In this document: piece by piece, positions 8,066 through 50,424 of the stretch
Position numbering within the stretch: the stretch's first letter is position 1
Layout of the letters: each line of letters starts with the position of its first letter
Notes under the pieces: generated by a model
Told to the model about the DNA's origin: nothing
What the model saw: only the letters and a program-made list of their open reading frames with translations
Database searches by the model: none
Assembly (NCBI GenBank): GCA_020833025.1
Contig: JAJHRB010000001.1
Location: forward strand, 1 to 64,000
Length of the DNA: 64,000 bases
Reading direction: 5' to 3'
Origin: Thermoproteaceae archaeon
GTDB taxonomy: Archaea > Thermoproteota > Thermoprotei > Thermoproteales > Thermoproteaceae
Position numbers and translations under genes: made by a program

Positions 8066-8735
8066 ACTAGCCCTGCGATGAGTTCTGCCTCCTCTCTACT
8101 CTCAACCGGCGGCACGGGGTCGATATCTATTACACGCATATCGCCATTGTAATCCCCTAGCGTCACTCTCGCGTAGAGGAGGCCCAGGTGCGAGAGCGCG
8201 TCCGCGACGAGCCCCCTGGCGCTATTGATCGTTGCGAAGACCGACAGCATTCTGCTTGGTCTCGGCGCGATGACTGTCACTCTCGCGAGGGGATTGCGCA
8301 TGTAAGCGCGATGCTCGAGCACGCTTTTCGCGCCCTCCATGCTTGTCACCGGACCGTCTAAGTTCAGCCTCCACGCAGTCAGCAACAGCCACGGCCCCCT
8401 CATATCGACCTTTTCGAGCGAGGCGTCTGCGCATACAACCGCATACGGCGGGCCGAACTTCGGGAGCCAGCTCAGCCTGTTGACGGCCAGTAGAGATGCC
8501 ACTGGCGGGTTTATGCTGCGCTTTGCCAGAAGCCCGTAAGCCGCTGCCACGTACGGGTTCCTGATCCTCACTACTGCCGTGCCCGGAATGCTTCTGACGG
8601 GCATCTCTGTCACGTTCAGCGTCACTGCCCTGAGGCCCCTCCGCGCCAGCGACTCAACTATGAGCCGGTCGGAAACAGTCGGGGTGTCTGTGATGATATA
8701 TACTGCATCGTCGCCGCCCGTGGCCCCTGATTCAT
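8062..8735 (-). CDS. Degenerate LysX/ArgX-like ATP-grasp protein; 5' end out of frame
   Basis: Weak LysX similarity (SINPP..AVNRLS, SVLEHRAYM, VIDIDP in place of the VNEVN motif) and operon context. ATG 8735 follows a TATA box but needs one extra G at 8724-8727. Confidence 0.55.
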
Positions 8736-8819
8736 GGCGGGTCGAGGAGGCGCGCTTTATATAGGTTGTGCTATTGGCTTAGCGCGGCAAGTTTAAAAAA
8801 GACGGGGACCTAAAACATT
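8736..8819. promoter_or_regulatory. Divergent promoter region for the lysX-like operon and thrC
   Basis: TATATAAAG on the minus strand and TTTAAAAAA (8791-8799) on the plus strand, each 19 nt before an ATG. Confidence 0.6.
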
Positions 8820-9973
8820 ATGGACGTGCCATCGGGGACGGCGCGCCGTACCTGAAATGTGTACTGTGCGGAGCTAGATACGAGCAGAACTACAGGCTGT
8901 ACACGTGCCCCAGGTGCGGAGGCCTTCTTGAGGTGACCATCCCGCACAAATACTGGAGCCCGCGGGGCAGAGGCATCTGGCGGTATGCATCAATGCTGCC
9001 GCTAGGGAGCGGCATCTCGCTGGGAGAGGGCGGCACTCCGCTGGTTGAGTCGAGTCTGAGTAGTAACCTCTACATTAAGTTTGAAGGGACTAATCCCACC
9101 GGGAGCTTTAAGGATAGAGGAATGGCCCTTGGCGTTACAGTTGCGAGGGAGAGCAGGGCCGAGAAGGTGATAGTCGCGTCCACAGGAAACACTGCGGCGT
9201 CTGCCGCAGCGTATGCCGCGAGGGCTGGGCTGAAGTGCTACGTGCTGCTGCCCCGGGGCAACGTCGCGCGCGGCAAGCTCATACAGGCAGCACTTCACGG
9301 CGCTGAGATAATTATGATTAACGGCTTTTTCGACACTGCTCTCAGGTACGTGCTCGAGCACGGCACCAAGTACGCATATCCGCTGAACAGTTTCAATCCG
9401 TGGAGGCTGGAAGGCCAGAAGACAATTGCATTTGAGATATACGAGGAGCTTGGATGTCCAGATTACGTAATAGTGCCCGTTGGAAATGCAGGCAACATCT
9501 CTGCAATATGGAAGGGGTTTAGAGAGCTGGGAGAGCTCGGTCTCTGCAGAAAGCTTCCTAGAATGGTAGGCGTGCAGGCAGAGGGCGCGGCGCCGCTTGC
9601 CGTGGCGTGGCAGAGAGGTCTCAAGAGCCCGCTATTTGTTGACAAGCCCAAGACAATAGCAAGTGCAATTAGAATAGGCAGGCCGATTAACTGGCCCAAG
9701 GCAATGGCGGCAGTAGAGCAGTCAGGCGGCCTCTTCATCGCGGTTTCCGACAGCGAGATTGCCGAGGCTCAGAGGCTTCTGGCATCTAGAGACGGCATCG
9801 GGGCGGAGCCGGCGGGGGCTGCCTCCGTTGCAGCCGCGCTGAGGCTCAAGGTGAGCGGCACTGTAGTGGCCGTCGTCACGGGGCACGCACTCAAGGACCC
9901 CGACGTTATCGAAATAAGCGTCAGGGAGATAAAAGATTCAAGAGAGCTCCTCCTACTGCTGGAGGGAGCGTGA
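8820..9973 (+). CDS. thrC: Threonine synthase; 5' end out of frame
   Basis: EGTNPTGSFKDRG, ASTGNT and VPVGNAGN motifs. The Zn-ribbon N-terminus YLKCVLCG..CPRCGG lies upstream of the called GTG 8933. ATG 8820 needs one extra G at 8834-8837. Confidence 0.9.
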
Positions 9974-10968
9974 AACCCGTCGTGAAGATAGGAGGCTCTC
10001 TCCTTAAGAGCGCCGAGGATTTCGTCAGAGCTGCCCGCTTCGTAGTCTCACAGAGAGAGCCGCCGGTCGTGGTAGTCTCGGCGATGAAGGGCGTCACAGA
10101 TGCCTTGCTCGAGCTTGAGAAGTCCAGAAGCATTTCGATCTACTACGAAATCGCGCGGAGGCACGCCTCTGTTGCTGAAGCACTCGGCGTGCTTGAAGCC
10201 ACGAGAGCACCGCTCAAGGAGCTGAAAGACGCGCTGAAAATGCCGAGAGAGGCTTGGACGCGCGATTACTTCGCCTCATTCGGCGAGAGACTCTCCGCGA
10301 TAATATTACACGCCGTGTTGAGGAGGCTTGGCACTCCCGCAAAGCTATTCACGGCTCCGCTGCTCACAGATGACAATTACGGAAATGCAGAACCGCTAGC
10401 GCTTGAGAGTGCAGACGAAATAGCGGAGCCAGGGACTGTGGCGGTCGTCACGGGGTATATAGGCAGGAGCAAAGAGGGGAGGTTCACTACTGTTGGGCGG
10501 GGTGGCAGTGATTACGTGGCCACCTTCATCGGCAGGGAAATAGGCTCAAGGAGAGTCTCGCTAATAACGGAGGCTCTCGGTGTGATGACCGCAGACCCCA
10601 GAGAGGTTGAGGGTGCAGAGCCGCTCCCGCTGCTCTCGATTTACGAGGCCCTTGAGGCCGCAAAGCTTGGCGTCAAACACTTCCACCCGCGAACGTTCGT
10701 GCCGCTGCTGGATGCAGCAAGCACAGTAGTTGAAGTGAGAAGCTATGAAAGCCGCGGGACGCTCATTGGACACTTCTACCCGCCGCCTCCCTGCAAGGTT
10801 GTTATAAGGTGCGAGGGAGGTAGTTACATCATAGGGCTGGCGGCGTACGAGCTAACAAAGCTCGGCGGCGTTCTACTGAGCAGGTATGCCGTAAGGCTAA
10901 ACATGGCGCCGCGAGACGCTCACGAGCTCTTCATCAGGCCGCACCTCAAGACGCTCTTCAAGCGGTAA
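9970..10968 (+). CDS. lysC: Aspartate kinase
   Basis: VVKIGGS, VVVVSAMKGVTD, SFGERLSA, GRGGSDY, GVMTADPR; start overlaps the thrC stop. Confidence 0.9.
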   Translation: MKPVVKIGGSLLKSAEDFVRAARFVVSQREPPVVVVSAMKGVTDALLELEKSRSISIYYEIARRHASVAEALGVLEATRAPLKELKDALKMPREAWTRDYFASFGERLSAIILHAVLRRLGTPAKLFTAPLLTDDNYGNAEPLALESADEIAEPGTVAVVTGYIGRSKEGRFTTVGRGGSDYVATFIGREIGSRRVSLITEALGVMTADPREVEGAEPLPLLSIYEALEAAKLGVKHFHPRTFVPLLDAASTVVEVRSYESRGTLIGHFYPPPPCKVVIRCEGGSYIIGLAAYELTKLGGVLLSRYAVRLNMAPRDAHELFIRPHLKTLFKR

Positions 10969-11136
10969 TCCCTGCCCCTCAGGACTGGGCTGCCGGCCTT
11001 CAGCAGCGGCCCGCAGTGCTCGCCCAGGCCGTTTCCAAAATCCCAGCCGGAGGGACCAGCAAGGGCGGGGCGAGGGCGCCTTCTCTGGGACGCGGGAGCG
11101 TCTGCCCTTTAGGGCGGGAGGGGGATTGGCGGGACG

Positions 11137-11185
11137 TCAGTTCGTGGGTTCCTCCTCACGGGTCAGAACTAAAGACCCTCGTCAC
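11137..11185 (-). ncRNA. C/D box guide sRNA
   Basis: C GUGACGA, 12-nt guide GGGUCUUUAGUU, D' CUGA, CCC, C' GUGAGGA, 12-nt guide GGAACCCACGAA, D CUGA. Intergenic. Confidence 0.85.
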
Positions 11186-11217
11186 CCGAGAGCTCGCGCG
11201 CCGCTCCAAAAATTCAC

Positions 11218-11586
11218 TCACGACGCCTCCATTTTTCTTAGCAGTCTGAGCCACGTGGCAATGGACTCTCCCCCGGCCACTAGCTTGCCTTTAATAAGTC
11301 TGTACTGGCTGACGGCGCCCTTTTTCACTAGATACGCTGCAAACATGTTGACCAAGACTTTTGCCTGACCTCTCCTCACAAGACCCTTGATGTACTCACT
11401 AGGATAGTCTCTGGCGACAGGATTTCCCTTTTCGGCTGCCTCCTTAGCGCGCAGTGCCAGAAGCTTGACGCCAACCTCCTTGAGCCATGCCTCAAATTTA
11501 TCCAGCTCATCGCGGAACTCTCTTGCTATTTCTGAGCCGAGAAACTGGCTCCAGTACTGCCTTAGCTCACTTAGCGCTGACTCCAC
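11218..11586 (-). CDS. Conserved hypothetical protein
   Basis: 122-aa ORF with typical codon usage; TTTTAAAG box 18 nt before the GTG. Confidence 0.7.
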   Translation of the reverse strand: MESALSELRQYWSQFLGSEIAREFRDELDKFEAWLKEVGVKLLALRAKEAAEKGNPVARDYPSEYIKGLVRRGQAKVLVNMFAAYLVKKGAVSQYRLIKGKLVAGGESIATWLRLLRKMEAS

Positions 11587-11717
11587 GCTTCTCTGTGCGC
11601 GCTACTTTTAAACTTTGGCACTTAACGTGGCTCAAGCGGTGCGGCTCGCAGCACGGGGCGTCGTGTTATTACGTAGGCCTCAAGCGGCTGCCACGCGGTC
11701 GCACGAACGCCTAGGAG

Positions 11718-12278
11718 CTAGAAAAAAGAAGCATAGTACCCCACTGCAATTTTCCTCGCCGCCTCCGCGGCGCACGAGGGGCAGACAAGAGCCATGCCGT
11801 GTCTCTTTAGCGTCGAGCCGCATTTAGGACACCGCGAGAGAATAACGCCATAAGTGGGCCCGCGTATTGAAACTATTAGCGGGGGGCCGTGAGCTGAGAC
11901 GACCCTCGCCCTTATGTAATCGCCGATGCCGAGCCTCCCGTCAGCCAAGAAGTGAGGCAGAATACCTGTAAACTGATACTTCAAGTCCACGGGCCCTCGC
12001 TTGCCCTCAACGGCGAAGCACTTAAGCTGGTACGCCCTCTTGCCCTTGCCGGTGACCTGGCAGTAAACTACCGCGCCGGGTTGCGGCAGCGGCGGGTTCC
12101 TTACAGGTCTTACCACTGCTGTATGAGATTTATCGTCATAAAGTGCTACACAAAGCGTGCATGCAATGTACTTGTAGCCGGCATAGTATGCCGAGCCCCT
12201 CACATCGTACTCCTCTGCATACGCGACAATCTCACCCGGCGTGACTACTGCACGCTTCACGCACAGGCTTGCGCCCAT
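11718..12278 (-). CDS. csl4: Exosome complex RNA-binding protein Csl4
   Basis: VVTPGE N-terminus, S1 domain (LGIGDYIRARVVS), C-terminal CPKCG..CPSC ribbon, next to rpoL. Start 12278 is inferred. Confidence 0.85.
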   Translation of the reverse strand: MGASLCVKRAVVTPGEIVAYAEEYDVRGSAYYAGYKYIACTLCVALYDDKSHTAVVRPVRNPPLPQPGAVVYCQVTGKGKRAYQLKCFAVEGKRGPVDLKYQFTGILPHFLADGRLGIGDYIRARVVSAHGPPLIVSIRGPTYGVILSRCPKCGSTLKRHGMALVCPSCAAEAARKIAVGYYASFF

Positions 12279-12313
12279 AAGATTAAGCTTTTTACCGCGC
12301 CGTACTGTACCTC

Positions 12314-12925
12314 GTGCTTGTTGAGCTGTCATTTAAGTTCAGCAGCGCGAGTGAGGTCGAGAAATTCTTGTCATTTCTCGAGAGACACGTGAGGAATGTT
12401 CGATATTCCGTGAGCGCGCGTCTGACGCACGTTTACGTCCAGCTGCAGGGAGAAGGCAAGGAGCTTCAGGACGCAGTTGCGCTGGTGAAAATGCTCGCAG
12501 GTCTCGCGAGAGCTCGGCGCGCCGTTAGACGGGTGCCGCTGTTGGTACTGTTCAGAGACGCTGAGCTGGCAAGGCCTGTGCCGCCGGACGCGATAGCCGA
12601 CGCGCTGACGTTATCCGGCATTCCGTCGAGAGTGCGTGGCAGCTTCCTCGAGACAGAGGCAGACTACGAGAAGGTCCTACAAGTGGCTGAGGAGCTTTCT
12701 AGGCTCTACAAGATCTCCGAGAGGTACCCGATAACGCCACACGCAAAGAGAATTGTCGTGGTGCACGCGTATGCTACAGGCAAGCCGGTCGACGCGTCAA
12801 TAGAGGAGCTAGTAAGTGCCGGGTTGCTAAATCGCGGCGCGGCTATCAGCCTTAGATACCCCATTGAGGAGACAAAGAGGCGCTTGCTCAGTGCTGCTAG
12901 CGTTAGGCAGGGGCGGTCGGCTTAG
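12314..12925 (+). CDS. Conserved archaeal protein (DUF2067-like)
   Basis: 203-aa ORF between csl4 and rpoL, the usual neighbourhood of this family; TTTTTA box 19 nt upstream. Confidence 0.55.
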   Translation: MLVELSFKFSSASEVEKFLSFLERHVRNVRYSVSARLTHVYVQLQGEGKELQDAVALVKMLAGLARARRAVRRVPLLVLFRDAELARPVPPDAIADALTLSGIPSRVRGSFLETEADYEKVLQVAEELSRLYKISERYPITPHAKRIVVVHAYATGKPVDASIEELVSAGLLNRGAAISLRYPIEETKRRLLSAASVRQGRSA

Positions 12926-12952
12926 TTTAAATACTGCCGCGTAGCCGCGTGC

Positions 12953-13246
12953 GTGCTTCAGCTTGAAATACTGAAACTTGACGACAAGTACTTGGAAATC
13001 AAGGCCCGGGGAGACACGTACACTCTATTCCCGCCTATCGTAGAGTATCTGTCTCGCGACCCGGACGTGGAGTACGTGCAGTTTGACGTTGACCACCCGC
13101 TACTCGAAAATGTACATTTTAAGGTAAAGGTTAGAAGCGGCAATCCCCTTAAGGCCGTGGAGAGGGCCGTGAGGGCCATACTGCAGGATCTAGAGGAGCT
13201 CGAGAGAGGATTCCTCGCGGAGAGTCGCCAGGCCGGGAGCATGTAG
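12953..13246 (+). CDS. rpoL: RNA polymerase subunit L (Rpo11)
   Basis: GDTYTLF..VEYVQFDVDHPLLENVHFKVK motif. Confidence 0.9.
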   Translation: MLQLEILKLDDKYLEIKARGDTYTLFPPIVEYLSRDPDVEYVQFDVDHPLLENVHFKVKVRSGNPLKAVERAVRAILQDLEELERGFLAESRQAGSM

Positions 13247-13267
13247 AGAGCCCCGGCCGCCGCCGTT

Positions 13268-13936
13268 ATGATGCGCCTAGTACTGGCAGAGGCCTCGCTC
13301 GAGCTCGTGCCGCCAGAAATACGGAGCCACCCAGCAATAATAGCCGATGCCAGGAGGCGGGGCAGGAGGCCGGAGGAGATGCTACTCGACCGGGCCCGGC
13401 ACCATCCGGCAATGCTGGCACTTAAGGACTCTCTCAGGCGGGGGAGGCCGGACATAGTGCACCAGGCATTACTCGTGTTCCAGTATAGCCTCCTGAATAG
13501 GCGCGGGCTGGGCAGAGCATACGTCCACACGCGCGATGACTACGTTATCGTGATCCAGCCGGAAACGAGAATGCCCCGGAATTACAATAATTTCATTGCA
13601 TTAATCGAGCAACTCTACGCCATTGGCAGGGTCCCGCCCCGAGGGAAGCCTCTCATCGAGCTTCAGAGAAAGGCCCTGCAGTCGCTGCTCAGAGAGCTCG
13701 GAAACCGCTGGATCGTGCTTCACGAGAATGGCGTGAAGGTGTCTCTGGCTGAAATTGGCAAAGCGCTTCTGAGCTCTGTCGTCGTGATCGGCGGCTTTCC
13801 GCACGGAGACTTCTTAAATAAGTGGGTCATCGAAGCGGCCGAAGCCGTGTACAGGCTAGGCGACGAGGTCATGGATGCGGCGCAGGTGATCTGCAAGGCC
13901 GTCACTGCCGCAGAGACCGCCGCCGGCCTTCTCTAA
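13268..13936 (+). CDS. nep1: 16S rRNA pseudouridine methyltransferase Nep1/Emg1
   Basis: LAEASLELVP, RGRPDIVH, RMPRNYNNF and IGGFPHGDF motifs. Confidence 0.92.
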   Translation: MMRLVLAEASLELVPPEIRSHPAIIADARRRGRRPEEMLLDRARHHPAMLALKDSLRRGRPDIVHQALLVFQYSLLNRRGLGRAYVHTRDDYVIVIQPETRMPRNYNNFIALIEQLYAIGRVPPRGKPLIELQRKALQSLLRELGNRWIVLHENGVKVSLAEIGKALLSSVVVIGGFPHGDFLNKWVIEAAEAVYRLGDEVMDAAQVICKAVTAAETAAGLL

Positions 13937-13944
13937 CACTAGCC

Positions 13945-14724
13945 ATGTCCGTGGAATTCCTGGTATATCTGAAGCGGAAGGGGCGCTGGCAAGAGCTAGC
14001 GAGATATGTGGAGCAGATCGGTGTGCCGTGCGTTCTCGACGTGAGCCATCTCGACACGTCGCGCTCGCCGATAACAACTGCGGTGGAGATAGAAGATGCA
14101 CTACTCGAGAGCAGAATTGACGCGCTGGCTCTGCCGAGAGTCGGCGTGAGCGAGCTCGACTGGTACATCATGCTGGCAGACGCACTTGGTACGACAAGGC
14201 TTGTAATACCACCTGCACCCACAATAGACGATATAGCTGCGGTGTATGACAGGGCTGTGGGACATGGTATGCACGTTAACTGGATTTACGGAATTCAGCC
14301 GCTTGCGAGCATAGACGACGTCGAGAGAGTGGCCCGCGAGGTGAGGCACACAGCGGCGAGAATAACGTACGACCCGGTCAAGGCGAGAGGCACGAAAGAG
14401 ATTTACAAGACTATAGTAGCGCTGAGCGGGTACATAAGAGAAATATATATGTCGAACAGACGCGGAGGGCGCAGCCCGCGCCTCCCGCCATTTGACCCCT
14501 CAGGCAGGGTAAACTTTGCTGAGATTATGCAAATATTGCACTTGATAGGCTGGGAGGGCAAGCTTACCATTAGGCAAGCTCCTGCGTACTTCAGCGAGCT
14601 GGAGGTTCAAATTAAAATAGGCATGGAGGTTCTCGAGAGCACAAAAAGCTCCGGCGCCTCTAAAGTAGTGCGGAGACGGGTGTCGGCGATACTCGCCGAG
14701 CTTATGTCTCGAGGAGCTCCCTAA
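13945..14724 (+). CDS. Sugar phosphate isomerase/epimerase-like TIM-barrel protein
   Basis: ITYDP, RLPPFD..GRVNF..IGWEGKLTI resemble the AP-endonuclease-2/xylose isomerase-like fold. ATG 13945 is inferred. Confidence 0.55.
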   Translation: MSVEFLVYLKRKGRWQELARYVEQIGVPCVLDVSHLDTSRSPITTAVEIEDALLESRIDALALPRVGVSELDWYIMLADALGTTRLVIPPAPTIDDIAAVYDRAVGHGMHVNWIYGIQPLASIDDVERVAREVRHTAARITYDPVKARGTKEIYKTIVALSGYIREIYMSNRRGGRSPRLPPFDPSGRVNFAEIMQILHLIGWEGKLTIRQAPAYFSELEVQIKIGMEVLESTKSSGASKVVRRRVSAILAELMSRGAP

Positions 14725-14792
14725 GTCCACTTGAGCGCCGCGGCGGGCAGGCCCCGCGCGACTTGCACACATGTTCAGGACTCCGTGTCAGA

Positions 14793-14897
14793 TCAGAGGT
14801 CCTATGTCAGAGATCCCGTGCCGGGGGGTCCTATGCGCAGGGGCACACACCCATTCATAGGACCTCTGGCACAGAACCTCTGACATAGCATTCTTGA
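14793..14897. repeat. Symmetric array of three direct and three inverted 14-bp units (consensus TCAGAGGTCCTATG)
   Basis: Direct units at 14793, 14807 and 14821; a 20-nt spacer; inverted units at 14856, 14870 and 14884. Confidence 0.75.
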
Positions 14898-14948
14898 CGC
14901 AAGAATCTGGAAATCCGGTTTCCCGTTCAGGCCTGCCGCCGCAGTGAC

Positions 14949-15590
14949 ATGAAAGCATACAGAATGCTCGCGCTGCGCTACGACGTCCTAGAGCTGCCGC
15001 CCGAGGCGCAGCAGAATTCCCGCAGTTACTCAAGGTCCTGGCAGAGTTCCGAGCGCGGGCCTCCGAGCAGGCCGAAAATGGCGGCAGAACGCAACTGCCA
15101 GAGAGAGGGGCCCAGCCGAGGCGTCTCGCAGAGAAATTTTGTCCACGCGTACAACGCGCTGGAGCGACTGAGAGGGCGCGTCATAAGGCGCGGCAAGAGG
15201 GACTTATCGAGGGTCTCGCAGGCGGCACGGAGTGCCGTGCGTTGAGGCGAGGCTCTACAGCACGGTGTGCCCGAAATGCGAGGCGAAAATGGTGGAGCTG
15301 CAGAACAAGCGAGCTGGGTGCATGAAATGCTGCCTCAAGACAAACCAAGAATGAAAGTGCCCATCATGTGGGCGGTGAAGAGATTTGGCGGGCTGCTCAA
15401 AACGGCTCAGGCCTAAAACCACCTCTTTTTTCTTCGCCGTGCCGGATGCTTACTAGCCCGGCAGTTCTCGCAATCTCATGAAAGCACGGCCGAGAGAGCG
15501 CTCCCTGTCAGGCGTGGGGTCCCGCCCGGCAGCGCCGCCTAGCGAGCGGGGCTCCGGCCCCCGGAGTGCGGTAGGGGTTGAAAGGGGGCA
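14949..15590 (+). mobile_element. tnpB: Internally deleted TnpB-like remnant plus putative right end
   Basis: MKAYRMLALRYDVLELPPEAQQ, FVHAYNALERLR, then directly GLIEGLA..HGVPCVEARLYSTVCPKCEAKM. Homologous to the 5.2-5.9 kb remnant. Confidence 0.7.
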
Positions 15591-15778
15591 CGGACACTAC
15601 TACCCCGGCTGGCAGAATTGCGCTATCGCGAAGTTTGCTCTGTTTTCTTATCGCTACGCGACTGTTTTACATTTCCTAGCAAGGCTACTTGAAATTTAAC
15701 AGAGCACATGTGAGAAGATGTAACTGAGTAAGTTAACAATGTACAAATTAATGGCCAAGTTTGACGAGAGGCTTGCAG

Positions 15779-15796
15779 TTAAAGTTAACTTTAAAT
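15779..15796 (+). promoter_or_regulatory. Perfect 16-bp palindrome overlapping the argG TATA box
   Basis: TTAAAGTTAACTTTAA at 15779-15794; TTTAAAT at 15790-15796, 20 nt before ATG 15817. Confidence 0.6.
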
Positions 15797-15816
15797 TCAT
15801 ATTAACGAGAGCGAAC

Positions 15817-17033
15817 ATGGCGAGCAGCGCCTCGGGGCGAGCAGAATAGTACTTGCCTACTCGGGAGGTCTGGACACCACGGTAGCAATAAAGTGGCTAA
15901 GGGAGAAGTTCAATGCAGAGGTTTATACTGTCACTGTTGACGTCGGGCAGGAGGAGGACTTTGCAGAGATTGAGGAGAGGGCATACAAGGCAGGCGCAGT
16001 GCAGCACTTCTACATAGATGCAAAGAGAGAATTCGCCGAGGAATACATATTTCGCTCTATTTTAATGAATGGAATGTATGAAGGGCTATACCCACTGGGG
16101 ACCGCTCTGTCTAGGCCCCTAATAGCTAAGAGGGTTGTCGAGATAGCCAGAAGGGTCGGAGCAGACGCAGTGGCGCACGGGTGCACCAGCAAGGGGAACG
16201 ACCAGGTCAGGTTCGAGCTGACAATTAAGGCGCTCGCGCCTGACCTGAAAATCATAGCGCCGGCGAGAGTGTGGGGCATGACGCGCGCTGAGGAGCTTGA
16301 GTACGCCAAGCGTCACGGACTGCCTGTGAGCGCCGAGCACAGGAAATTCAGCATTGACGACAATCTTTGGTCGAGGTCAGTAGAGGGGGGCCCGCTGGAC
16401 GACCCGGCCGCGGAGCCCTCGGAAGAGGTCTTCAAGTGGACGGTCGCGCCAGAGAAGGCGCCAGACAAACCGACGTATCTGACGCTAGAATTTAGAGACG
16501 GGCTCCCAATTGCGATAAACGGCGAGAGAATGGACCCGCTCGCACTGGTGACCGCGCTTAACGGCATCGGCGGTGCAAACGGTATCGGCAGGATAGACCA
16601 CATGGAGAGCAGGGTAGTGGGGCTTAAGAGCCGGGAGGTATACGAGGCGCCAGCAGCCGTGATACTGTACCACGCGCACAGAGACCTCGAGAAGCTCGTG
16701 CTCACGCCGCGCGAGCTGAGATTTAAGCACGGGATTCTTGACACCACGTGGTCGGACCTAGTGTATCAGGGCCTGTGGGTCGAGCCGCTGCGCGTGGCGC
16801 TTGAGAGGGCAGCAGAGGAGATGGAGCGGTGGGTGACCGGCACGGTGAGAGTAAAGCTCTACAAGGGCGCCCTCTGGATAGTGGGGAGGGAGTCGCCGTA
16901 TAGTAGCTACAGCAGAGAGCTCGCCGACTACAATAGAGGGTGGTATCCGAGCGACGAGGAGGCCAGGGGATTCATTAAAATGTGGGGCCTCCACTCGCTG
17001 ATCGCCATCAGGAGGCGCCGGCTGGCCGTCTAG
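15817..17033 (+). CDS. argG: Argininosuccinate synthase; 5' end out of frame
   Basis: [13 protein letters not shown] lies upstream of the called GTG 15999; also [33 protein letters not shown] 15817 needs one extra G at 15834-15837. Confidence 0.92.
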
Positions 17034-17287
17034 CCGGCGCGAAGAGGAAAGCACCAAAACTGGGCCGGGGAGGGAAAACAGGCGAGGTTTCAGTACCGCT
17101 GCCGGAGCGCAACTCGCGGCAACTGCCGCTAACACTCACGGCGATAATATAATGAGGGAATTGAGGGAGGGCGTTGCATGCCTCAAGAAGTCCGCGCGAA
17201 AGACGCCCCGGGCTTTCTGGCCCCGGAGGGCAGCGAGAGTGAGCGTGTCCTGCCACTCTCAAGCCTCGCTAGCTGTTTTAACTGTGG

Positions 17288-18505
17288 TCATGAGCGCGAC
17301 CCCGAGCCCTCAAAGAAGTACAGCACAGCGGAAGGCCATGACTTTGCTACTGGTGACACGTCGTCCACGCACCCTCCCACTATCTTGAGCGCCGCGAGCG
17401 CCATTAGGCCAATTCTGTGATCGCCGTGTGAGGGCAACACGACGCCGCCTCTCCTGAGGGGCCCCCTCACGTGCAGTGTGCCGTCCTTGTACTCAGCATA
17501 TGCGCCGAGCCTCCGCAGCACGTCGATGACAGAATTTATCCTGTCGCTCTCCTTAAACCGCAAGTGCTCCACCCCGCGGATTACTGAGAGGTCCTCTACC
17601 GTCGCGGCTGCCAGCGCCAGCGGCATGACTAAGTCAGTATTGTGCCTTAAATCTGCGTCAACTCCCCTGGCAAGCGCGCCGCTCACGCGCACGACGCCTC
17701 CTGCCTCGCTGATCCTGGCGCCCATTTTCTCCAGCGCCTCTAAGAGGGGCCTGTCGGTGCTGGCAACCGTGCACGCTATCTCCACGGTACCCCCAGTGGC
17801 GAGCGCCGCCACCGCGAGGAATGCTGCCAGGCTGAAGTCGCCAGGCACTTTAATGCTGCCGGGGCTTCTCAGCGTGCCGGAGACCTCCACGACGCTCCCC
17901 ACGCTGACTCTCGCGCCAAAGGCCTTGAGAGCCTCGGCCGTCGCCTCGACAAAGCTCCAAGATCGCCTCTCGCCGAGGGGCTCCACGACTCCGCTTCCGC
18001 ACAGCGCGGCGAGGTACATGAGGCCTGAGATGTATTGCGACGAGATGTCAGCCCTCACGCGCACGTGAAAGCTCTCGAGGCGCCTGCCCTCAACCACCAC
18101 AAGGCCGGGCGCCCAGACGACTCTGGCAAGACCCCTCAAGGCGTCTACTAGCTCTCCGAGAGGTCTCTTTAGGAGAGTACCGCCGTATAGTATTGCAGTG
18201 ATGCCTGGCACGCCTGTGTAAATGGCCGTGGACGCGCGCAGTACGAACCCGCTCTCCATGACGCTAAAGGCTCTGAGGCGCTCCGGCTCTCTCCTATCAA
18301 TCATCACGCTGGCTCCCTCCAGTCTCACGCTCGCCAGCGGTTTTACTGCCCTCAACGCTGCGATCACGTCATCGCTCAGCTCGACCCCGTCAATTATAGT
18401 CTCCCCGTCAGCAAGCGCGGCGGCAAGGATAAAACGCTGGGAGTACGGCTTCGACGGCGGCGCCGGGAATCTACCCCCGAGAGTGCCTCGCTCAATGCAG
18501 AACAT
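17288..18505 (-). CDS. aroA: 3-phosphoshikimate 1-carboxyvinyltransferase
   Basis: [34 protein letters not shown] and DHRIG motifs. Confidence 0.92.
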
Positions 18506-19523
18506 GAACTACGTAGGAGGTGGCCCTTGCAACATCCTCAGGCCTGACCCTCTCCAGCACCCACCTCCCCAGCCTGACCACTAGCGGCATGTAGATGTAC
18601 TCGCCGCGTCTCTTTTTGTCAAATTTTATCAGCGAGAGCGCGCCGGCAAGCTGCTCCCTCGACGCACGCGCCCGCGTTGGAAGCCCGAGCACCTCAAGCA
18701 GCGACCTCACGTCTGCAACAACGTCCTCGCGCAAGTAGCCCAGGTCGCGCGAGAGGTGGAGCTCTGCAACTATTCCGAGAGACACAGCCTCGCCGTGAAG
18801 GAGGCCCAGCACGCGCTCGAGAGCGTGTCCTACTGTGTGGCCTACATTCAGAACCTGCCTTATTCCCCTCTCCTCAAACTCGTCGATCTCAACCACTCTA
18901 GCCTTTATCTGAAGCGAGCGAAAAATTGCCGTCTCGAGCGCCCTCTCCTCCCGCCTCAGCAGCGCGTCCACGCCCTGCTTTATCCACGCGTAGAGCTCCT
19001 CGTCGAGCGCCACGCCATACTTCACCATTTCGGCAAACGCCGACCGGTACGCCCTATCGGGCAGCGTGTCTAGCCATGACGTGTCGCAGAATATTAGCGA
19101 GGGCTGATAGAAGACGCCTATGAGGTTCTTGATGCTGCCGACATCGACCGCGCCCTTGCCTCCCAGTGCCGCGTCAATCATAGCGAGAAGCGTCGTGGGA
19201 ACGCTCACGAGTCTAAGTCCCCTCATGTAGGTCCCAGCCGCAAAGGTAGCGACGTCGAGCAGCGCGCCCCCGCCCACGGCCACAAGGGCTGTTGACCTGT
19301 CGGCGCCTGCGCGCGCGAGAAATTCATATATCTTGAGCAGCGTGTCGAAACTCTTGACACCCTCGCCGCCCTTCAGTGCCAGCACGGGGACGCCGGGTAT
19401 TGGCGGCCTGAGTCCCTCTTCGATTACCAGCACGGGTCTCTCTACCAGCTCTGAGTACGGGAGATCTCTCCCCACGACGACCTCGGTCATCCCGCGGCTA
19501 TGTCTGTAAGCGAACCGCTTCAT
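18492..19523 (-). CDS. aroB: 3-dehydroquinate synthase
   Basis: [47 protein letters not shown] and DKK motifs. Confidence 0.95.
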
Positions 19524-20464
19524 CGCAGTCTCACGAGCTCCTCGGCCCTCGCCGCCACGCTCTCTGGCGTGAGGCCGAAGTGGTGGTAAAGATCGGCAGG
19601 GCTCTTTGCGCTCCTGCCATAGGACTTGAGGCCCATGATGGCGATTTTCGTCGGCCTTGTCTGGGACAGATACTCGGCGACGGCGGAGCCGAAGCCGCCG
19701 TGAACCATGTGCTCCTCGACCGTGACAATAGCGCCGGCTTTGGTCGCGTATTTCTCCACCGTGGAGTAGTCGAGGGGCTTAACAGTGGGGAAGTGCACTA
19801 CGGCGGCCGATATTCCCCGGTCTTTTAGCAGCTGTGCTGCGTCAATGGCGCACGGCAGCATGATGCCAGTTGTAAATATCGCAACATCGCTCCCCTCTCT
19901 GATAACATACGCCCTGCCCACCTCGAACTTGTCGTAGAGTGAACAGGTAACCGGGACGTGAAAATCCCTCCCGACCCTTATGTAGGCAGGCCCCCTTATT
20001 GCTGCCGATGCCATGACCGCCCTGTATACCTCGCACGAGTCCGCCGGGACTATTATGGTGAAATTAGGGAGAACTCTAAAGAGTGCGACGTCCTCCAGCG
20101 CTTGGTGTGACGGGCCGTCGTACGCGTCAGAAAATCCTGCGTGAGTCCCAACGAGCCTGACGGGAAGCGCGAGCCTGTCAACGGCGTTTCTGGCCTGCTC
20201 CCAGCCCCTTGCTAGGAACGCCGCGAACGTCACGGCGTACGGCATAAAGCCGGCCAGCGCTAAGCCGGCGGCGATCCCGACCAGCGCCTGCTCCGCAATG
20301 CCAACGTTGAAGTATCTCTCCGGGTGTCTCTCAGCGAAGAGCCTGGCCCTTGTGGGCTCCCCCGTATCTGCGACGAGCACGACAACATCCCCCCTTAAAT
20401 CTCCGAGATCCGCCAGCGCGCGCCCCAGCGCCTCCCGGGGCGTTAGCTCTTCTAGCCCCGACAT
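19520..20464 (-). CDS. Transketolase C-terminal subunit
   Basis: [26 protein letters not shown] and [17 protein letters not shown]. Confidence 0.92.
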
Positions 20465-21284
20465 GCTAGAGACTGTGCGTACTGCAGGGCCTCGTCTCTC
20501 GATAGTCTCTGCCGGGGAGTTCCCTCGATGCCCGGCACTCCCCTCCCCCTCGCAGTTCTGGCAATAATCACTGCGGGTCTTGTGCTGCTCTCGGCCCTTT
20601 CAAGCGCCGAGACTATCTGCTCGTGGTCGTGCCCGTCGGTCTCGAGTACTTCAAAGCCGAGCGCTCTGAGCCTGCCCGGCAGGTCCCCCTTGCGCAGTAC
20701 CTCCTCAACGCGCCCGTCGAGCTGTATGCCGTTGTAGTCCACTATCGCGAGGAGATTAGTCAAGTTGTAGTGTGCCGCCGCGGCGAAGGACTCCCAGCTT
20801 AGCCCCTCGTCGAGCTCTCCGTCGCCAGTTATTAAGTACACGCGACCTCTGTTGCCCCTCAGCTTGAGGCCCAGGGAGAGGCCGACCGCCATGCTTATTC
20901 CCAGAGCCAGCGAACCTGAGTTGGGCACGTCGACAAACGGCGTGTCTGCCTCGGGGTGGTTCTGGAGGCGGCTGCCCAAGCTACCGGACTCCCTCAGCTC
21001 GTCGAGCGCTAGATAGCCCATTGCCGCGGCGAGCGCGTAAATCGCGTGCACCGCGTGACCCTTAGACAGCACTAGGTAATTCCTGTTGCCCACGCCATTT
21101 GCTAGATTGAACTTCACTCTGCCAGTGCCGTAGAGCGCTACCAGTATGTCGAGCACCGAGAGAGACGACCCGAGGTGCATCCCGGGGTCGTAGCTCGCCA
21201 TTAGGAGCAGGTATAGTCTCGCCCTGCACGCCAGCTCTCTCAGCTGCTGAACCCCGACCTCTCTAGTGCTGAGTACCCCTGCAT
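20452..21284 (-). CDS. Transketolase N-terminal subunit; 5' end out of frame
   Basis: HLGSSLS, LSKGHA and GDGELDEG TPP motif. The helix QQLRELACRARLYLL lies upstream of the called ATG 21201. ATG 21284 needs one extra G at 21276-21279. Confidence 0.9.
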
Positions 21285-21376
21285 GGCCTGAAAGGGGGTC
21301 CGGTATTTAAGTAATCAGCACGTGCGCGCCACGCGCGCGGGTTTTTGTCCTTATAAGCAGACTAGGTAGCGGCCGC

Positions 21377-22357
21377 GTGGAGCGCTTGTTGAGAAACGTC
21401 GTGGAGGTAGTGACGCCCGAGGAGTTCTCCAGGCTGGGAGGCGGCGTGGCGTACCTCGGCTTCGAGCCGACCTGGCCAATACACGTTGGGTGGCTCGTGT
21501 GGGCTTTCAAGCTCGCAGAGCTCAAGGAAGCCGGCTTCGACGTGGTGCTGCTCGTCGCGACGTGGCATGCGTGGATAAATGACAAGGGGTCCGTGGAGGA
21601 GCTGAGGGAGCACGGCCGTAAAATAAAGTCATTTATCGAGAAAATTAGCAATTTCAAATATGTCAATAGCGACGACATTGTCAGCGACCCGAAGTACTGG
21701 GAGCTGGTGGTCAGGGTGGCGAAGGTGACCTCTCTGGCGAGAGTGAGGCGCGCGATACCAATAATGGGCAGGCAGGCCGAGGAGGTCATGCTCGACTTCT
21801 CGAAACTGCTGTACCCGGTCATGCAGGTCGCCGACATGCTCTACCTTGGTGTCGACGTGGCGGTAGGGGGGCTCGACCAGCGTCGCGCTCACATGCTGGC
21901 AAGGGATGCGGCGGAGAGACTCGGCCTCAAGAAGCCGGTAGCCCTTCATGTGCCCGTGATCACCTCGCTCTCTGGCGTTGGGAGAATGGAGGGCATTCAC
22001 GGAGAGCTTGACGAGATGTACGCAATGTACAAAATGAGCAAGTCGAGGCCGAGTAGCGCAATATTCGTCACGGACTCCGATGAGGAGATTCGCAAGAAGG
22101 TCTGGCTCGCGTACTGCCCGCCGAGGGAGACAAGGTTCAACCCTGTGTTTGAGATCGCAGCATACCTCCTCATCCCATACGCCGGGCCTCTCGAGGCAGG
22201 CGGGCGCCGCTACGAGGACCCGCGCGCGCTTGAGGGAGACTACAGGAGCGGTGCCATCGATCCCAGGACTCTTAAGGAGGCCGTGGCGTCCGGCCTCATA
22301 TCTTTATTCTCCAAGCTTAGGAGCTGCGCCGTTGGCAAGCCCGGCACAGCGGCATGA
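21377..22357 (+). CDS. tyrS: Tyrosine--tRNA ligase
   Basis: YLGFEPT..HVG, YPVMQVAD, GGLDQR.AH and KMSKS motifs. Confidence 0.95.
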   Translation: MERLLRNVVEVVTPEEFSRLGGGVAYLGFEPTWPIHVGWLVWAFKLAELKEAGFDVVLLVATWHAWINDKGSVEELREHGRKIKSFIEKISNFKYVNSDDIVSDPKYWELVVRVAKVTSLARVRRAIPIMGRQAEEVMLDFSKLLYPVMQVADMLYLGVDVAVGGLDQRRAHMLARDAAERLGLKKPVALHVPVITSLSGVGRMEGIHGELDEMYAMYKMSKSRPSSAIFVTDSDEEIRKKVWLAYCPPRETRFNPVFEIAAYLLIPYAGPLEAGGRRYEDPRALEGDYRSGAIDPRTLKEAVASGLISLFSKLRSCAVGKPGTAA

Positions 22358-34252: not shown

Positions 34253-34254
34253 CG

Positions 34255-40644: not shown

Positions 40645-40784
40645 CCCCCTAGGGGCGCTTGGGCAATGCGTACATAATGCAGCGCGCCATCGCTCTGCAC
40701 CCCCTCATGGAGTGGCCGCGAGCTCCTGCACAGAAGGGCGGGGCTTAAATATAGTGCCCTGAAGGGCAGGACCGTCGCGATGCG

Positions 40785-41174: not shown

Positions 41175-41257
41175 GCGCACATGCAGTGGCTGTGCTTATA
41201 ATACCAAGGCACGGCTTCAGCAAAGGGCTAAAAACGCTCCACGCCCCGGTGTTGCTG

Positions 41258-41482: not shown

Positions 41483-41563
41483 GAGAGGTGGCGCCGGAGT
41501 CTCATATAAATATGTACCCGCGGGATTTGGGTAAATTTATATGCCGCGCCGGCCCTTGATAGC

Positions 41564-41905: not shown

Positions 41906-41941
41906 CCAGTGTGCCTGCCGGCGTGTACTAAAGTTATTTAG

Positions 41942-43896
<1,955 letters not shown>

Positions 43897-43953
43897 GAGC
43901 TGCGCGCCCAGCGCGCAAGGACCTTCTACCGGACCTCCTGCAGCAGCATATTA

Positions 43954-44165
43954 ATGGACGTCAAAATATATACTCTGCGACAAGCCCCGTGCTTGTGAAT
44001 ACAATAATCGAGGAGCTCAGGAAGGTCTTCGGAAGCGGCGACGAGGGAAGGCTTGCAGAGCGGCTGATCTTGGCATACAAGGACGGCGGCACGCGCGCTG
44101 TGAGGCTCGTGCTTCACGAATATCTCAAGACACTCGGCGTCAATGTGGAGAGTAGAGAGAATTGA
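43954..44165 (+). CDS. Arcadin-3; 5' end out of frame
   Basis: Small helical ORF between arcadin-2 and arcadin-4. ATG 43954 needs one extra A at 43963-43966 to read MDVKNIYSATSP. Confidence 0.65.
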
Positions 44166-46521: not shown

Positions 46522-46529
46522 CCCGCGTC

Positions 46530-46580
46530 TCAGTCCCTGACCCCCTCCTCATGCCACTCAGACTGGTAAGTTCTCGTCAC
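46530..46580 (-). ncRNA. C/D box guide sRNA
   Basis: C GUGACGA, guide GAACUUACCAGU, D' CUGA, GUGGC, C' AUGAGGA, guide GGGGGUCAGGGA, D CUGA. A TTTTAAAC box lies upstream on the minus strand. Confidence 0.88.
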
Positions 46581-46712
46581 TAGCGCTGCCGGAGGGTGCC
46601 CGCATAAGTTTAAAACTAATGCAGGGGCACGACGGGGGCGAGGCCAGGCTGAGCGGAAAGCACTCAGTCCTACAACTAAGAAGTATATATACCTCGCGCG
46701 TGTCTTTCTCAC

Positions 46713-47711: not shown

Positions 47712-48313
47712 GTGTTCCGACCGCCGTGCATTAACAACAGCCAGTTGTACGCCGGCAGGAATTTAAAATTTGTCGTGACAAAGTCCCAGAACTTGCGGTA
47801 GATCTCGGCCGCTGGGTGCGACGATATTAACGCAAGCAGTCTAGCTGCCTCCGAGAAGCGGCCTGCAATAGCTAGACTCGCTGACACGTCAACGGCGAGA
47901 GTCCTCACGAGAGTGAGGGGGAGAGTCTCGCCCTCGATTATCTGGGCACGCGCGCGCTCGACTACGAGCTCCGGGCTCGCTCTCGCGACTATCGAGTCGA
48001 CAAGGCGCTTGAGCATGGCAAGCGAGAGCTCGTAGGCGAGCTCGTCGGCCTTCACGCCGCTCGGCACGGCCCAGACTTCTATTAACTCCGGCTCCGTCAC
48101 CGCGCGGGCGGTTGCAGCCTCTCTCATTATTGCGTAGTCGTTGGGCGGTAGTGACACCTTGAGTATTATCATGTCGCCAATTTCTAGCTTTGTCCGGTCA
48201 GCGCCCACTATCACAACATCAATAGGCGCTGGCCCGACGAGCTCTATACTTCTTTCAATTCTCTTTAGGGTCTCCTCTCTCACTTCGGCGGTAATAATGA
48301 AGTCGGCACTCAT
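47708..48313 (-). CDS. Hypothetical protein
   Basis: 201-aa ORF convergent with radA, normal composition. Confidence 0.65.
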
Positions 48314-48366
48314 GACTTCACCTGACCTCCTGAGGTTAATGTTTTATATGCGAAATAAAGGGCCGC

Positions 48367-49977
48367 GTGGGCGCGCCAAAATTTGACGTGATTATCACGA
48401 CAGATCGCTCCATGATGTCGAACTACCACCACAAGGAGTTTCTCGGGTTTGGCACAACAGGGCCCGTGTTCGTAGAGCTGCCGCTCGGGCTCTCGGAAGT
48501 ATTTCACTCCTTTCTGTTTGCCCCTAAGGTGAAGACCGACAGGTGGGGGAGGCCTCTTGAGGCGCCGTACGGGATGAGAAAAATCGAGGCAAAACTGCTA
48601 GATGCCGGCATCAACGCGGCAGTGATAGACCCCAGCCACGTCCACAAGCACATACCGCGCGCTAAGGTGCTCATGTTGAGCCACCACGACTACTTCGGTC
48701 TTAACCCTCCAAGCAGCACTTGGGGCGTGATTCTCAATAGAGAGCCGATGAATGCCATGTTCTTCAGGAGGTTCATGGAGAGAATCGCGCCGCTGGTTAA
48801 GAGAGCCAAGGCGGAGAACGGGCTCAGAGTGATAGCCGGGGGGCCGGCAGCGTGGCAATGGCTTTACTTCCCCGAGCTTATAGAGAGGTGGGGCGTAGAT
48901 ACAATATTCGACGGCGAGGGCGAGAGACACATCGTGTCGCTTGTGAAAATGGCACTGGAGGGGGAGCCGCTCCCGAAGTACTTGTACGTCGGCGCCGACG
49001 AAGCCCCCAGCCTCTCTGAAATCTCGACGATTAAGTACCCGAGCATAAACGGGCTCGTAGAGATAGGCAGAGGCTGCCCCAGACGCTGCGCGTTCTGCCC
49101 CGTGACATTACGCCCCCTACGATGGTACCCGCTTAGCAAAATTGAGGAGGAGATTAAAGTGAACGTACAGGCAGGGGTCGTAGACGGCATACTGCATGCG
49201 GAGGACGTGCCTCTCTACGGCTCCAGCGGCATCGTGCTGGACCCCGAGAAAGTAATAGCTCTGCATAAGCTGGCCAAACGTTACTACCGCAGGGTAGGGT
49301 GGAGCCACACGGCGCTGGCCACGGTGTACCACGGAGAGAAGAAGATGGGGCGTCTCTTCACAAAGCTGGCTGAGATCCTGCTTGACGAGGATCAAGAGTG
49401 GTGGGGGGCCCAGGTGGGCCTTGAGACTGGGTCTGTGCGCCTGATTAAGAGGTTCATGCCGGGGAAGGTAGCGCCGTACCGGATCGAGCAGTGGAGGGAG
49501 ATAGTCGTGGAGGCTGCTGCTATAATGCACGAAATCAGGCTGATACCCGCGCTTACAATAATAGTAGGGCTGCCAGAGGAGCGGCCGGAGGATGTCATTG
49601 AGACCATCGAGCTGGTGGAGCAGCTCAGGCCGTACAGGAGCTTAATCGTGCCGCTCTTCTACGTGCCCATGAGCCACGTTACGAGCGGGAAGACCGGGTG
49701 GCTTGACAGGCTGAACCTGTACCCAGAGCACCTCGACCTGTTAAAGCTCGTCGCGAGACACTCGATACACTGGGCCCGGGATATAGTTAACAGGTTTTAC
49801 CTGCGGGGGATGCGCTACGCTCTTGTGAGATTTTTAATAAATTATTTCATTAACTATGTCGAGAGGAAGTTGAATGAGATAGAAGATGTCGTGGAGAGCT
49901 ACAAGGAGAGGCTAAAGCAGTTCAGAGAATCCGCTAGGAGAGAGATCCTACTGTTTTCGGACATTAAGTGCCGTTAA
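48367..49977 (+). CDS. B12-binding domain radical SAM protein
   Basis: EAPYGMRKIEA, IAGGPAAWQ, EIGRGCPRRCAFC and GLETGS. Confidence 0.88.
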   Translation: MGAPKFDVIITTDRSMMSNYHHKEFLGFGTTGPVFVELPLGLSEVFHSFLFAPKVKTDRWGRPLEAPYGMRKIEAKLLDAGINAAVIDPSHVHKHIPRAKVLMLSHHDYFGLNPPSSTWGVILNREPMNAMFFRRFMERIAPLVKRAKAENGLRVIAGGPAAWQWLYFPELIERWGVDTIFDGEGERHIVSLVKMALEGEPLPKYLYVGADEAPSLSEISTIKYPSINGLVEIGRGCPRRCAFCPVTLRPLRWYPLSKIEEEIKVNVQAGVVDGILHAEDVPLYGSSGIVLDPEKVIALHKLAKRYYRRVGWSHTALATVYHGEKKMGRLFTKLAEILLDEDQEWWGAQVGLETGSVRLIKRFMPGKVAPYRIEQWREIVVEAAAIMHEIRLIPALTIIVGLPEERPEDVIETIELVEQLRPYRSLIVPLFYVPMSHVTSGKTGWLDRLNLYPEHLDLLKLVARHSIHWARDIVNRFYLRGMRYALVRFLINYFINYVERKLNEIEDVVESYKERLKQFRESARREILLFSDIKCR

Positions 49978-50424
49978 GTGCAAAGCCTAGAAGCCTGCCG
50001 CGCAGCGAGCCCCTCACGTCGACAAGCGAGCCCGCGCGAGCGAAACCCAGCACTGCAGCCAAAATGCAAGCTGTGCCGCACTGCACGCAGCACGAAAGCG
50101 GGACTTCCTTGTCGCACTCAACCTCGCCGTGCTTGCAAACAAGCTCCTCGATGAGCTTCCAGGCCTTCCTCAATAGACTCTCGCGCGGGACTTGAAGCTC
50201 GAGCGCTAGAGATGTTGTAATACCGTAAATGTCAGTAATGTAGAGTATCGACTTGACGCCGAGGCGCGAGGCGAGCGACGACATACACGGCAGAGTCCTC
50301 CTCTCCAGCCTGCCGCCGCAAAGCCGGTATATTTCCTTAAACCGCTTTAGCGCTTCGGCGTCTGCCTCGACATACGCTAACAGCCCGCTTCTCCAGTCAA
50401 CAAGCGCGACTCCCCTGCACGCAT
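49964..50424 (-). CDS. Hypothetical Cys-rich protein; probable 5' frameshift
   Basis: The called GTG 50440 abuts the TATA box. ATG 50424 is at TATA spacing but needs one extra G at 50412-50415. Confidence 0.55.

Follow-up and report, generated by a model that had tools for sequence, protein, structure and literature searches.

The DNA analysed here, referred to as the window, is a stretch of 64,000 nucleotides (nt) from a Thermoproteaceae archaeon (GCA_020833025.1, contig JAJHRB010000001.1, which is contig C61 in our numbering); its source genome is a draft of 1.56 Mb in 126 contigs with a G+C content of 62.6%. Within the window, a lysX-like gene, the threonine synthase gene (thrC), the argininosuccinate synthase gene (argG) and the transketolase N gene (tkt-N) that heads an aromatic operon all open with a short leader open reading frame (ORF) which overlaps the start of the enzyme in a different frame (Table 1). 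An earlier inspection of the letters alone, here called the sequence-only reading, had listed six ATGs in the window whose frame is wrong for the protein behind them, and had proposed that one base must be added to a four-base run in the first codons. All six ATGs are present, and at four of them, which belong to lead genes of amino-acid units, a one-base shift at a run of four G is indeed needed in the first codons. The codon behind this GGGG tract is that of the pathway's own end product, a key feature that the sequence-only reading did not contain.

The layout was established by three-frame translation around each ATG, and the enzyme families were assigned by NCBIfam and Pfam searches. The ATG frames stop after 25 (lysX-like), 11 (thrC), 10 (argG) and 14 codons (tkt-N), and at all four genes the body of the enzyme lies in the -1 frame relative to the ATG. 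From the upstream stop codon to the conserved N-terminus these enzyme frames contain no ATG, GTG or TTG. In the lysX-like gene the first in-frame start comes only at GTG 8625, and the first canonical starts of thrC (GTG 8933) and argG (GTG 15999) are already located behind the zinc ribbon and behind the N-terminal AYSGGLDT motif, respectively. The zinc-ribbon cysteines of ThrC, the AYSGGLDT motif of ArgG and the first helix of transketolase are landmarks that must be inside the proteins. An AT-rich, TATA-like box begins 27-30 nt 5´ of the ATG at each of the four sites, and this spacing matches what is expected for leaderless transcripts.

In the ATG frame the GGGG tract is phased NNG_GGG (the underscore separating codons) at all four genes. 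The codon that follows is ACG (Thr) in thrC, CGA (Arg) in argG and CCA (Pro) in the lysX-like leader, while the leader of the aromatic operon carries two tracts, the first followed by TAC (Tyr) and the second by TTC (Phe). The operon partners of the lysX-like gene, a semialdehyde dehydrogenase and an amino-acid kinase, are those of the LysW-type route to lysine or arginine. The lysX-like protein itself had no sequence match in Pfam, NCBIfam or the PDB, and a protein atlas leads toward RimK-like ATP-grasp enzymes, which we take as a lead only.

Table 1. Features of the window discussed in the text (positions are those of the window).
Feature	Position	Strand	Remarks
lysX-like leader ORF	8658..8735	-	ATG 8735, 25 codons, stop 8660-8658
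lysX-like slip tract	GGGG 8727-8724	-	CAG_GGG, then CCA (Pro) 8723-8721
lysX-like enzyme frame (-1)	8062..8726	-	220 aa after the putative slip
TATA-like box, lysX-like leader	8756..8763	-	~28 nt upstream of ATG 8735
Semialdehyde dehydrogenase	7001-8065		behind the lysX-like gene; family search
Amino-acid kinase	6222-7004		behind the lysX-like gene; family search
TATA-like box, thrC	8792..8800	+	TTTAAAAAA; begins 28 nt upstream of ATG 8820
thrC leader ORF	8820..8855	+	ATG 8820, 11 codons, TGA 8853-8855
thrC slip tract	GGGG 8834-8837	+	TCG_GGG, then ACG (Thr) 8838-8840
Threonine synthase, -1 frame	8835..9973	+	NCBIfam TIGR00260 thrC, 264.9 bits
TATA-like box, argG	15790..15795	+	TTTAAA; 27 nt upstream of ATG 15817
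argG leader ORF	15817..15849	+	ATG 15817, 10 codons, TAG 15847-15849
argG slip tract	GGGG 15834-15837	+	TCG_GGG, then CGA (Arg) 15838-15840
Argininosuccinate synthase, -1 frame	15835..17033	+	NCBIfam NF001770, 556 bits, aligned from residue 2
Aromatic-operon leader ORF	21240..21284	-	ATG 21284, 14 codons, stop 21242-21240
Aromatic tract 1	GGGG 21279-21276	-	CAG_GGG, then TAC (Tyr)
Aromatic tract 2	GGGG 21255-21252	-	TCG_GGG, then TTC (Phe)
TATA-like box, aromatic leader	21305..21312	-	~28 nt upstream of ATG 21284
Aromatic operon from -1 frame	17288..21278	-	NCBIfam and Pfam
Transketolase N	21278 to 20452	-	first gene of the aromatic operon
Transketolase C	19520-20464	-	aromatic operon
3-Dehydroquinate synthase	18492-19523	-	aromatic operon
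EPSP synthase	17288-18505	-	aromatic operon
Arcadin-3-like gene	43995..44165	+	in-frame GTG start at 43995; not in the system
Hypothetical gene	49964..50440	-	in-frame GTG 50440; no family match; not in the system

For comparison we used 17 other species genomes of the same genus, many of which consist of a single contig. As the sequence-only reading had suggested, orthologues were inspected, and the out-of-frame ATG together with the G4 tract is kept across the genus at thrC, argG, tkt and the lysX-like gene. At thrC, 17 of 17 same-genus genomes, 16 of them other than the source, have an out-of-frame ATG followed by TCG GGG AC(A/G), the distance between ATG and tract differing only in multiples of three, and in 12 of the 17 an additional G_GGG ATT (Ile) tract is located upstream. 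The argG sequence G_GGG CGA is present in 17 of 17 covered genomes of the genus. For tkt, the arrangement is found in 18 of 18 same-genus genomes; Tyr codons follow a tract in all 18, Trp codons in 15, Phe codons in 15 and all three in 12. The lysX-like layout was recovered by script in 14 of the 15 covered genomes and by eye in the fifteenth, and Pro, Lys and Arg tracts occur together in 11 of these 15.

Several leaders extend beyond the genus. Homocitrate synthase has one in 28 of 28 covered genomes from three genera of the family, and trpS begins with ATG GGG TGG in 24 of 26. The aromatic leader, with Tyr and Trp, is found in six of six covered genomes of the sister genus and is missing in the third genus of the family, where an in-frame ATG is present instead. 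IleS is of the recoded type in the source genome and in 8/8 sister-genus genomes. Among wider homologues the motif was seen at 16 of 77 covered loci, all of them at least 71% identical to the query; homologues with at most 56% identity never have it (0/61), and in most of them an in-frame ATG or GTG of the usual kind is present close to where the start is expected. The existence of frameshift-type leaders and their conservation are firmly established.

The four leaders are part of a larger set. We scanned the genome for an ATG followed within at most 11 codons by a homopolymer codon that is preceded by the same base; the ATG frame also had to be short, and the -1 ORF had to span 100 codons or more. 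With two further filters, a TATA-like box (an AT-rich 8-mer) and the absence of an upstream in-frame start, 20 G-type sites were obtained in the source genome, 15 of them in 13 amino-acid genes; the remaining five have no family match and look non-coding. Besides the genes of the window, the set contains leuA (Leu), ilvB (Leu), the citramalate synthase gene cimA (Ile), the isoleucyl-tRNA synthetase gene ileS (Ile), homocitrate synthase (Lys), carA (Arg), trpE (Trp), a TrpB-like enzyme (Trp) and a CysK-like pyridoxal phosphate enzyme (Cys), the amino acid in brackets being the one that would be sensed. A wider list adds the prephenate dehydratase gene pheA (Phe) and the tryptophanyl-tRNA synthetase gene trpS (Trp), which fall outside the 20-site filter with an AT-rich box score of 6 and with distant upstream in-frame starts, respectively.

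The AT-rich TATA filter is unspecific when used alone: of the 18 G sites that pass it in a finished relative of 1.77 Mb (G016), 11 have no relation to the set or do not look like genes, and it misses several true sites. We required the site to be at the N-terminus of orthologues in both the source genome and G016. This left 14 loci, of which 13 are amino-acid genes, with trpD included and ileS and trpE not; the fourteenth, a false positive, lies within a protein identified by eye as aconitase-like. The genome-wide count under this requirement is 13 conserved N-terminal GGGG sites and one internal false positive, more than chance would give by comparison with the controls below. At all 13 shared genes the amino acid that would be sensed is identical in G016, despite codon changes (ACG/ACA, TAC/TAT, ATC/ATT). 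Measured against the trinucleotides that follow GGGG anywhere in the source genome, the codon after the tract is cognate at 17 of 18 source-genome sites where 1.1 would be expected (Poisson-binomial P = 1.7e-24).

Control searches by the same two-genome procedure returned little. The single conserved pair for CCCC falls inside a long conserved protein; AAAA gave two weak and doubtful pairs, and TTTT gave none. No conserved case was found in the +1 direction for any of the four bases, and leaders opened by GTG or TTG were almost only internal false positives, the exception being trpB at a contig end.

The phase of the tract is nearly invariant. The 124 leaders considered, which belong to six genes, contain 205 G-runs of at least four bases, and 196 of these are exactly G4 in the NNG_GGG phase; the count includes one run per leader that is present by construction. 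The codon before GGG is mostly TCG (78/196), and the leader peptides have a median length of 12.5 codons, with a range of 4-30. NNG_GGG is the only phase that lets a P-site tRNA-Gly re-pair perfectly at -1, and a tRNA-Gly(CCC) was found in both the source genome and G016. ARAGORN counted only 18 tRNAs in the draft compared with 49 in G016, and tRNA copy numbers were for this reason left unused. The sensor codons are rare synonyms: CGA makes up 3% of the Arg codons, AAA 17-24% of the Lys codons and CCA 10-12% of the Pro codons. In homocitrate synthase the Glu codon of the enzyme frame is GAA in 28 of 28 cases, compared with 9-12% genome-wide, and GAA is what an AAA (Lys) codon in the leader frame calls for at this place. 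We take the phase, the rare sensor codons and this GAA as signs that the leader frame is under selection.

The search for stimulatory RNA structures was negative. No conserved hairpin was found downstream (consensus folds of -0.95 to -8.6 kcal/mol), z-scores of the 70 nt downstream averaged between -0.25 and +0.17 in the homocitrate synthase, thrC and argG sets, and no Rfam family matched in the window. A classical X_XXY_YYZ heptamer is absent as well, since the codon after GGG (ACG, CGA, TAC, CCA and others) cannot re-pair at -1. Mutually exclusive hairpins, as used by attenuators, were not seen as a conserved structure either, and the leader overlaps the first codons of the enzyme. What is found in the sequence is that expected of single-tRNA -1 frameshifting, namely a -1 ORF without a start, a P site able to re-pair, a conserved shift site and a cognate codon in the A site; as in attenuation, the leader is a short ORF that contains codons of the regulated amino acid.

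We consider it likely, on the strength of these sequence features, that the leaders act as amino-acid-sensing -1 frameshift switches. The mRNA would begin at or near the ATG, as the TATA spacing suggests, and a ribosome initiating there would read a few codons up to NNG_GGG, placing peptidyl-tRNA-Gly on GGG in the P site and the cognate codon in the A site. As long as the cognate aminoacyl-tRNA is plentiful, this codon would be read, a peptide of 3-30 residues would end at the leader stop and no enzyme would be made. When the aminoacyl-tRNA is scarce, the A site would stay empty, and tRNA-Gly could slip one base back onto G-GG, after which the enzyme would be read in the -1 frame. The layout of the leaders, its conservation, the fixed phase and the rule of the cognate codon are seen in the sequence; both the -1 slip itself and the response to starvation are what we infer from the arrangement. 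Tandem tracts would work as an OR gate, with Tyr, Trp or Phe for the aromatic operon, Pro, Lys or Arg for the LysW-pathway operon, Ile or Thr for thrC and Val or Leu for ilvB. Single-tRNA "hungry" slippage to -1 needs no stimulatory element and has a vacant A site as its trigger (PMC8211752). Together with the single re-pairing phase and the lack of a conserved structure, this makes a hungry-codon -1 slip the most economical reading. That a switch could sit at these starts had already been put forward by the sequence-only reading and is plausible; its suggested causes, reiterative transcription or slipped-strand variation, are unsupported.

Extending this to the family, we would suggest with moderate confidence that a frameshift regulon operates throughout the Thermoproteaceae (Pyrobaculum, Thermoproteus and a third genus), in which the first enzymes for Thr, Ile, Leu/Val, Lys, Arg, Pro, Phe, Tyr, Trp and Cys as well as two aminoacyl-tRNA synthetases would be made only upon a starvation slip, with OR logic at tandem sites. 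If so, one would predict from the Pro site of the LysW-pathway operon that proline is drawn from that pathway, and the regulon would be the first natural amino-acid-sensing frameshift system and a functional counterpart of attenuators and T-boxes for leaderless mRNAs.

Several observations weigh against this interpretation. The sets of cognate products behind the codon count were assigned after the codons had been seen, although along textbook pathways, and genomes from a single genus do not count as independent samples. Genes for His, Met, Ser, Gly, Asx or Glx yielded no sensors. In the source genome the lysX-like site precedes Pro, which is no known product of the LysW pathway, Lys and Arg being added in relatives. 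The -1 codon at every Trp site is GTG, which could serve there as an ordinary start, and the ATG..G_GGG TGG pattern is shared in G016 by an ABC permease gene and by Cas4/Csa1, which are unrelated to the system. For ileS in 12 same-genus genomes an in-frame ATG located 3-4 codons upstream, together with a conserved His-Gly-Asp, accounts for the motif. Finally, some orthologues (carA of G016, several thrC and tkt) have an in-frame start a few codons downstream.

One alternative is a sensory upstream ORF (uORF) without any frameshift, where translation of the enzyme would begin independently in its own frame, at ATA, CTG, the GTG formed from G plus TGG or another non-canonical or downstream codon, and would be modulated by stalling on the leader. 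The in-frame GTG that Trp sites produce fits this explanation, public annotations of the window genes already use ATA or CTG starts, and the tkt gene of another family in the order has a leaderless uORF in front of it that contains Phe, Tyr and Trp codons (4/4 loci). It leaves unexplained, however, why a G_GGG of fixed phase stands before every cognate codon and why the -1 frame is kept open by all tandem sensors. There is no conserved start in the enzyme frame, the ATA of argG being GTA in G016, the NCBI start of tkt lies upstream of the TATA-proximal ATG, and conserved alternative RNA structures are lacking. We regard this alternative as unlikely.

Transcriptional slippage, in which the polymerase adds one G to the G4 tract and so restores the frame, would yield the same protein as a -1 slip, and the runs are indeed close to the start, within 7-40 nt, of transcripts that appear to be leaderless. 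A strict codon phase and a cognate codon have no role in such a process, though, and G4 would be a short run for a slipping polymerase. For argG, the ATG of 15 out of 17 genomes is inside the 3´ end of the preceding gene, and the run is therefore not initially transcribed there. Reiterative transcription, as proposed in the sequence-only reading, is not borne out at runs that lie 7-40 nt into the transcript, keep one reading phase and have the cognate codon next to them, and we judge an added G to be very improbable as the general explanation.

The artefact and phase-variation explanations, a G5 under-called as G4 or a heritable switching of run length, might be suspected in a 126-contig draft from a genus of which one species reportedly has unstable G runs (Fitz-Gibbon, 2002), and site 50424 (see below) may be such a case, but their probability is negligible for the leaders: the tract is G4 everywhere, the same G4 and out-of-frame ATG recur in every genome of the genus, finished single-contig ones included, and metagenome contigs contain 11 indels elsewhere in the 14 kb and none at the four slip tracts. 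The contigs came from four metagenome runs of two studies (depth 45-260), one of them possibly the source and the other three from another study, and fully cover positions 8000-22000 of the window; assembled contigs may conceal rare run-length variants. It is the identical arrangement in the genus genomes and in the four metagenome assemblies that excludes both explanations for practical purposes.

The proposed frameshift switch resembles known systems in part. In prfB, the gene for release factor 2, the P-site tRNA slips when the A-site decoder is scarce, the product relieves this scarcity, and the site is located early in a zero frame that ends shortly after. Slip at a slowly decoded A-site codon, early position, short zero frame and feedback logic are the same here; the differences are a shift to -1 and not +1, an aminoacyl-tRNA in place of a release factor, no apparent Shine-Dalgarno stimulator, and a multi-gene archaeal regulon with tandem sites. 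With T-box riboswitches, the Firmicutes control trpS, ileS and biosynthetic operons according to whether the cognate tRNA is uncharged or scarce. These switches follow the same logic in the same gene set, but do so with a structured, tRNA-binding 5´ RNA, whereas the genes described here have no leader RNA and, in the window, no Rfam match. The fucA1 gene of Saccharolobus solfataricus, whose slippery heptamer is A-rich, is likewise a cellular archaeal gene expressed via a -1 shift; it is a single gene without a link to amino-acid sensing, and its site is not at the gene start. Leftward frameshifting at hungry codons in the laboratory was reportedly described by Gallant and Lindsley in 1992.

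In the literature, prfB is named in PMC6028130, and according to a 2021 review fucA1 is the only -1 frameshift reported in Archaea (PMC8211752). The hungry-codon shift, including conditional P-site slippage on dnaX, is also a single-tRNA -1 event with a vacant A site and independent of structure (PMC8211752); there the products are starvation errors on reporters or side products, whereas here the shift is proposed as the sole, regulatory route to at least 13 conserved enzymes. The trpL and hisL attenuators and the leaderless poly-Cys small ORFs of mycobacteria similarly use a short ORF with codons of the regulated amino acid that reports supply by pausing (10.1101/834739), but they rely on alternative hairpins and a separate downstream gene, while in our case no conserved hairpin exists, the leader overlaps the enzyme start and the output is a change of frame. 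Pyrobaculum is not mentioned in the 2021 review on archaeal recoding (PMC8211752) and has no entry in the consulted portion of a frameshifting survey from 2016 (PMC5009743). Full-text literature searches, covering main texts only, returned no description of such leaders.

To our knowledge, little is known of the control of amino-acid biosynthesis in Archaea with leaderless mRNAs, which leave no room for attenuators, T-boxes or riboswitches. The switch proposed here would, if true, provide a complete mechanism for it that can be read from the sequence, and the codon after G_GGG would be a label of what an operon answers to, such as proline for the LysW operon. Hungry-codon shifting would turn from a laboratory error into a physiological switch, and the number of archaeal genes with -1 frameshifting would rise from the one given in the 2021 review to more than 12 per genome.

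The leaders also have consequences for annotation. Public gene calls disagree on the length of all four proteins, with 346, 369 or 326 aa for thrC, 344 or 395 aa for argG, 249, 284 or 234 aa for tkt and 187 or 180 aa for the lysX-like gene. The longer calls take ATA or CTG as the first residue, and the lysX-like call of 187 aa is truncated. Since gene callers truncate these genes or invent ATA and CTG starts, core biosynthetic genes of the family are mis-annotated in public databases.

The two remaining ATGs of the sequence-only reading, 43954 and 50424, do not belong to the system. The frame of ATG 43954 had been called wrong for an arcadin-3 gene. This was not confirmed: the arcadin-3-like gene has an ordinary in-frame GTG start at 43995, as have 17 of 17 relatives (ATG in one), two of which show stop codons three codons upstream, and the TATA-like box (43965-43975) is downstream of ATG 43954. 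We rejected a frame problem at this gene for both reasons. ATG 50424 is out of frame as claimed, though in the source genome alone; most relatives have an in-frame ATG or GTG there. It was rejected as a member of the system on account of these starts and of its run, which is phased GGG_G, unlike that of the four leaders. In the window region 50410-50440 the relatives read M-(R/H)-R-G, which one G more or two bases fewer would match, and 50424 is a genome-specific difference, be it a mutation, a miscall or an alternative start.

A number of further observations were made at the genes discussed above. A small LysW-like ORF, recognised by eye by its zinc ribbon and acidic C-terminus, precedes argG in 15 of 17 genomes; the leader ATG sits in the last codons of this ORF, which shares one frame with argG, a single TAA lying between the two. 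Stop-codon read-through was considered for this arrangement and set aside, as the source genome has no upstream lysW and yet keeps the leader. Downstream of argG, between its end and the convergent end of the EPSP synthase gene, all four metagenome assemblies depart from the window sequence at 17075-17110 and 17207-17240; contigs diverge there or have 67 other letters in exchange for 93 bases, and the spacer looks like a repeat or a variable region.

In the genus of another family in the order mentioned above, the uORF before the tkt homologue has 12 codons and ends with TGG TAA overlapping the in-frame ATG, making it a cognate-codon leader without frameshift and possibly an evolutionary relative of the G_GGG leaders. 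In two other families thrC is preceded by short ORFs reading ATG GAA AC(A/C), with Thr as the third codon, which end just before or over the in-frame thrC start. A gene for a fusion of 3-dehydroquinate dehydratase and chorismate mutase in G016 (positions 5539-6426 of locus L074) has ATG GGG TAT TGA upstream at TATA spacing, which might be a further Tyr sensor, although there is a TTG one codon into the frame of the enzyme.

Outside the window, the L-aspartate oxidase gene (nadB) of the source genome (contig C9:30148-31246) matches only positions 203-489 of its profile, after ATG ATG GGG GTG; it seems to be split at a G5 run in the draft, as a pseudogene, a miscall or something else. The homocitrate synthase (contig C39:6021-7668) has a C-terminal domain (residues 380-460) like that of the LysM transcriptional regulator (NF040947), and lysine may be sensed twice, by the homocitrate synthase protein and by its leader.

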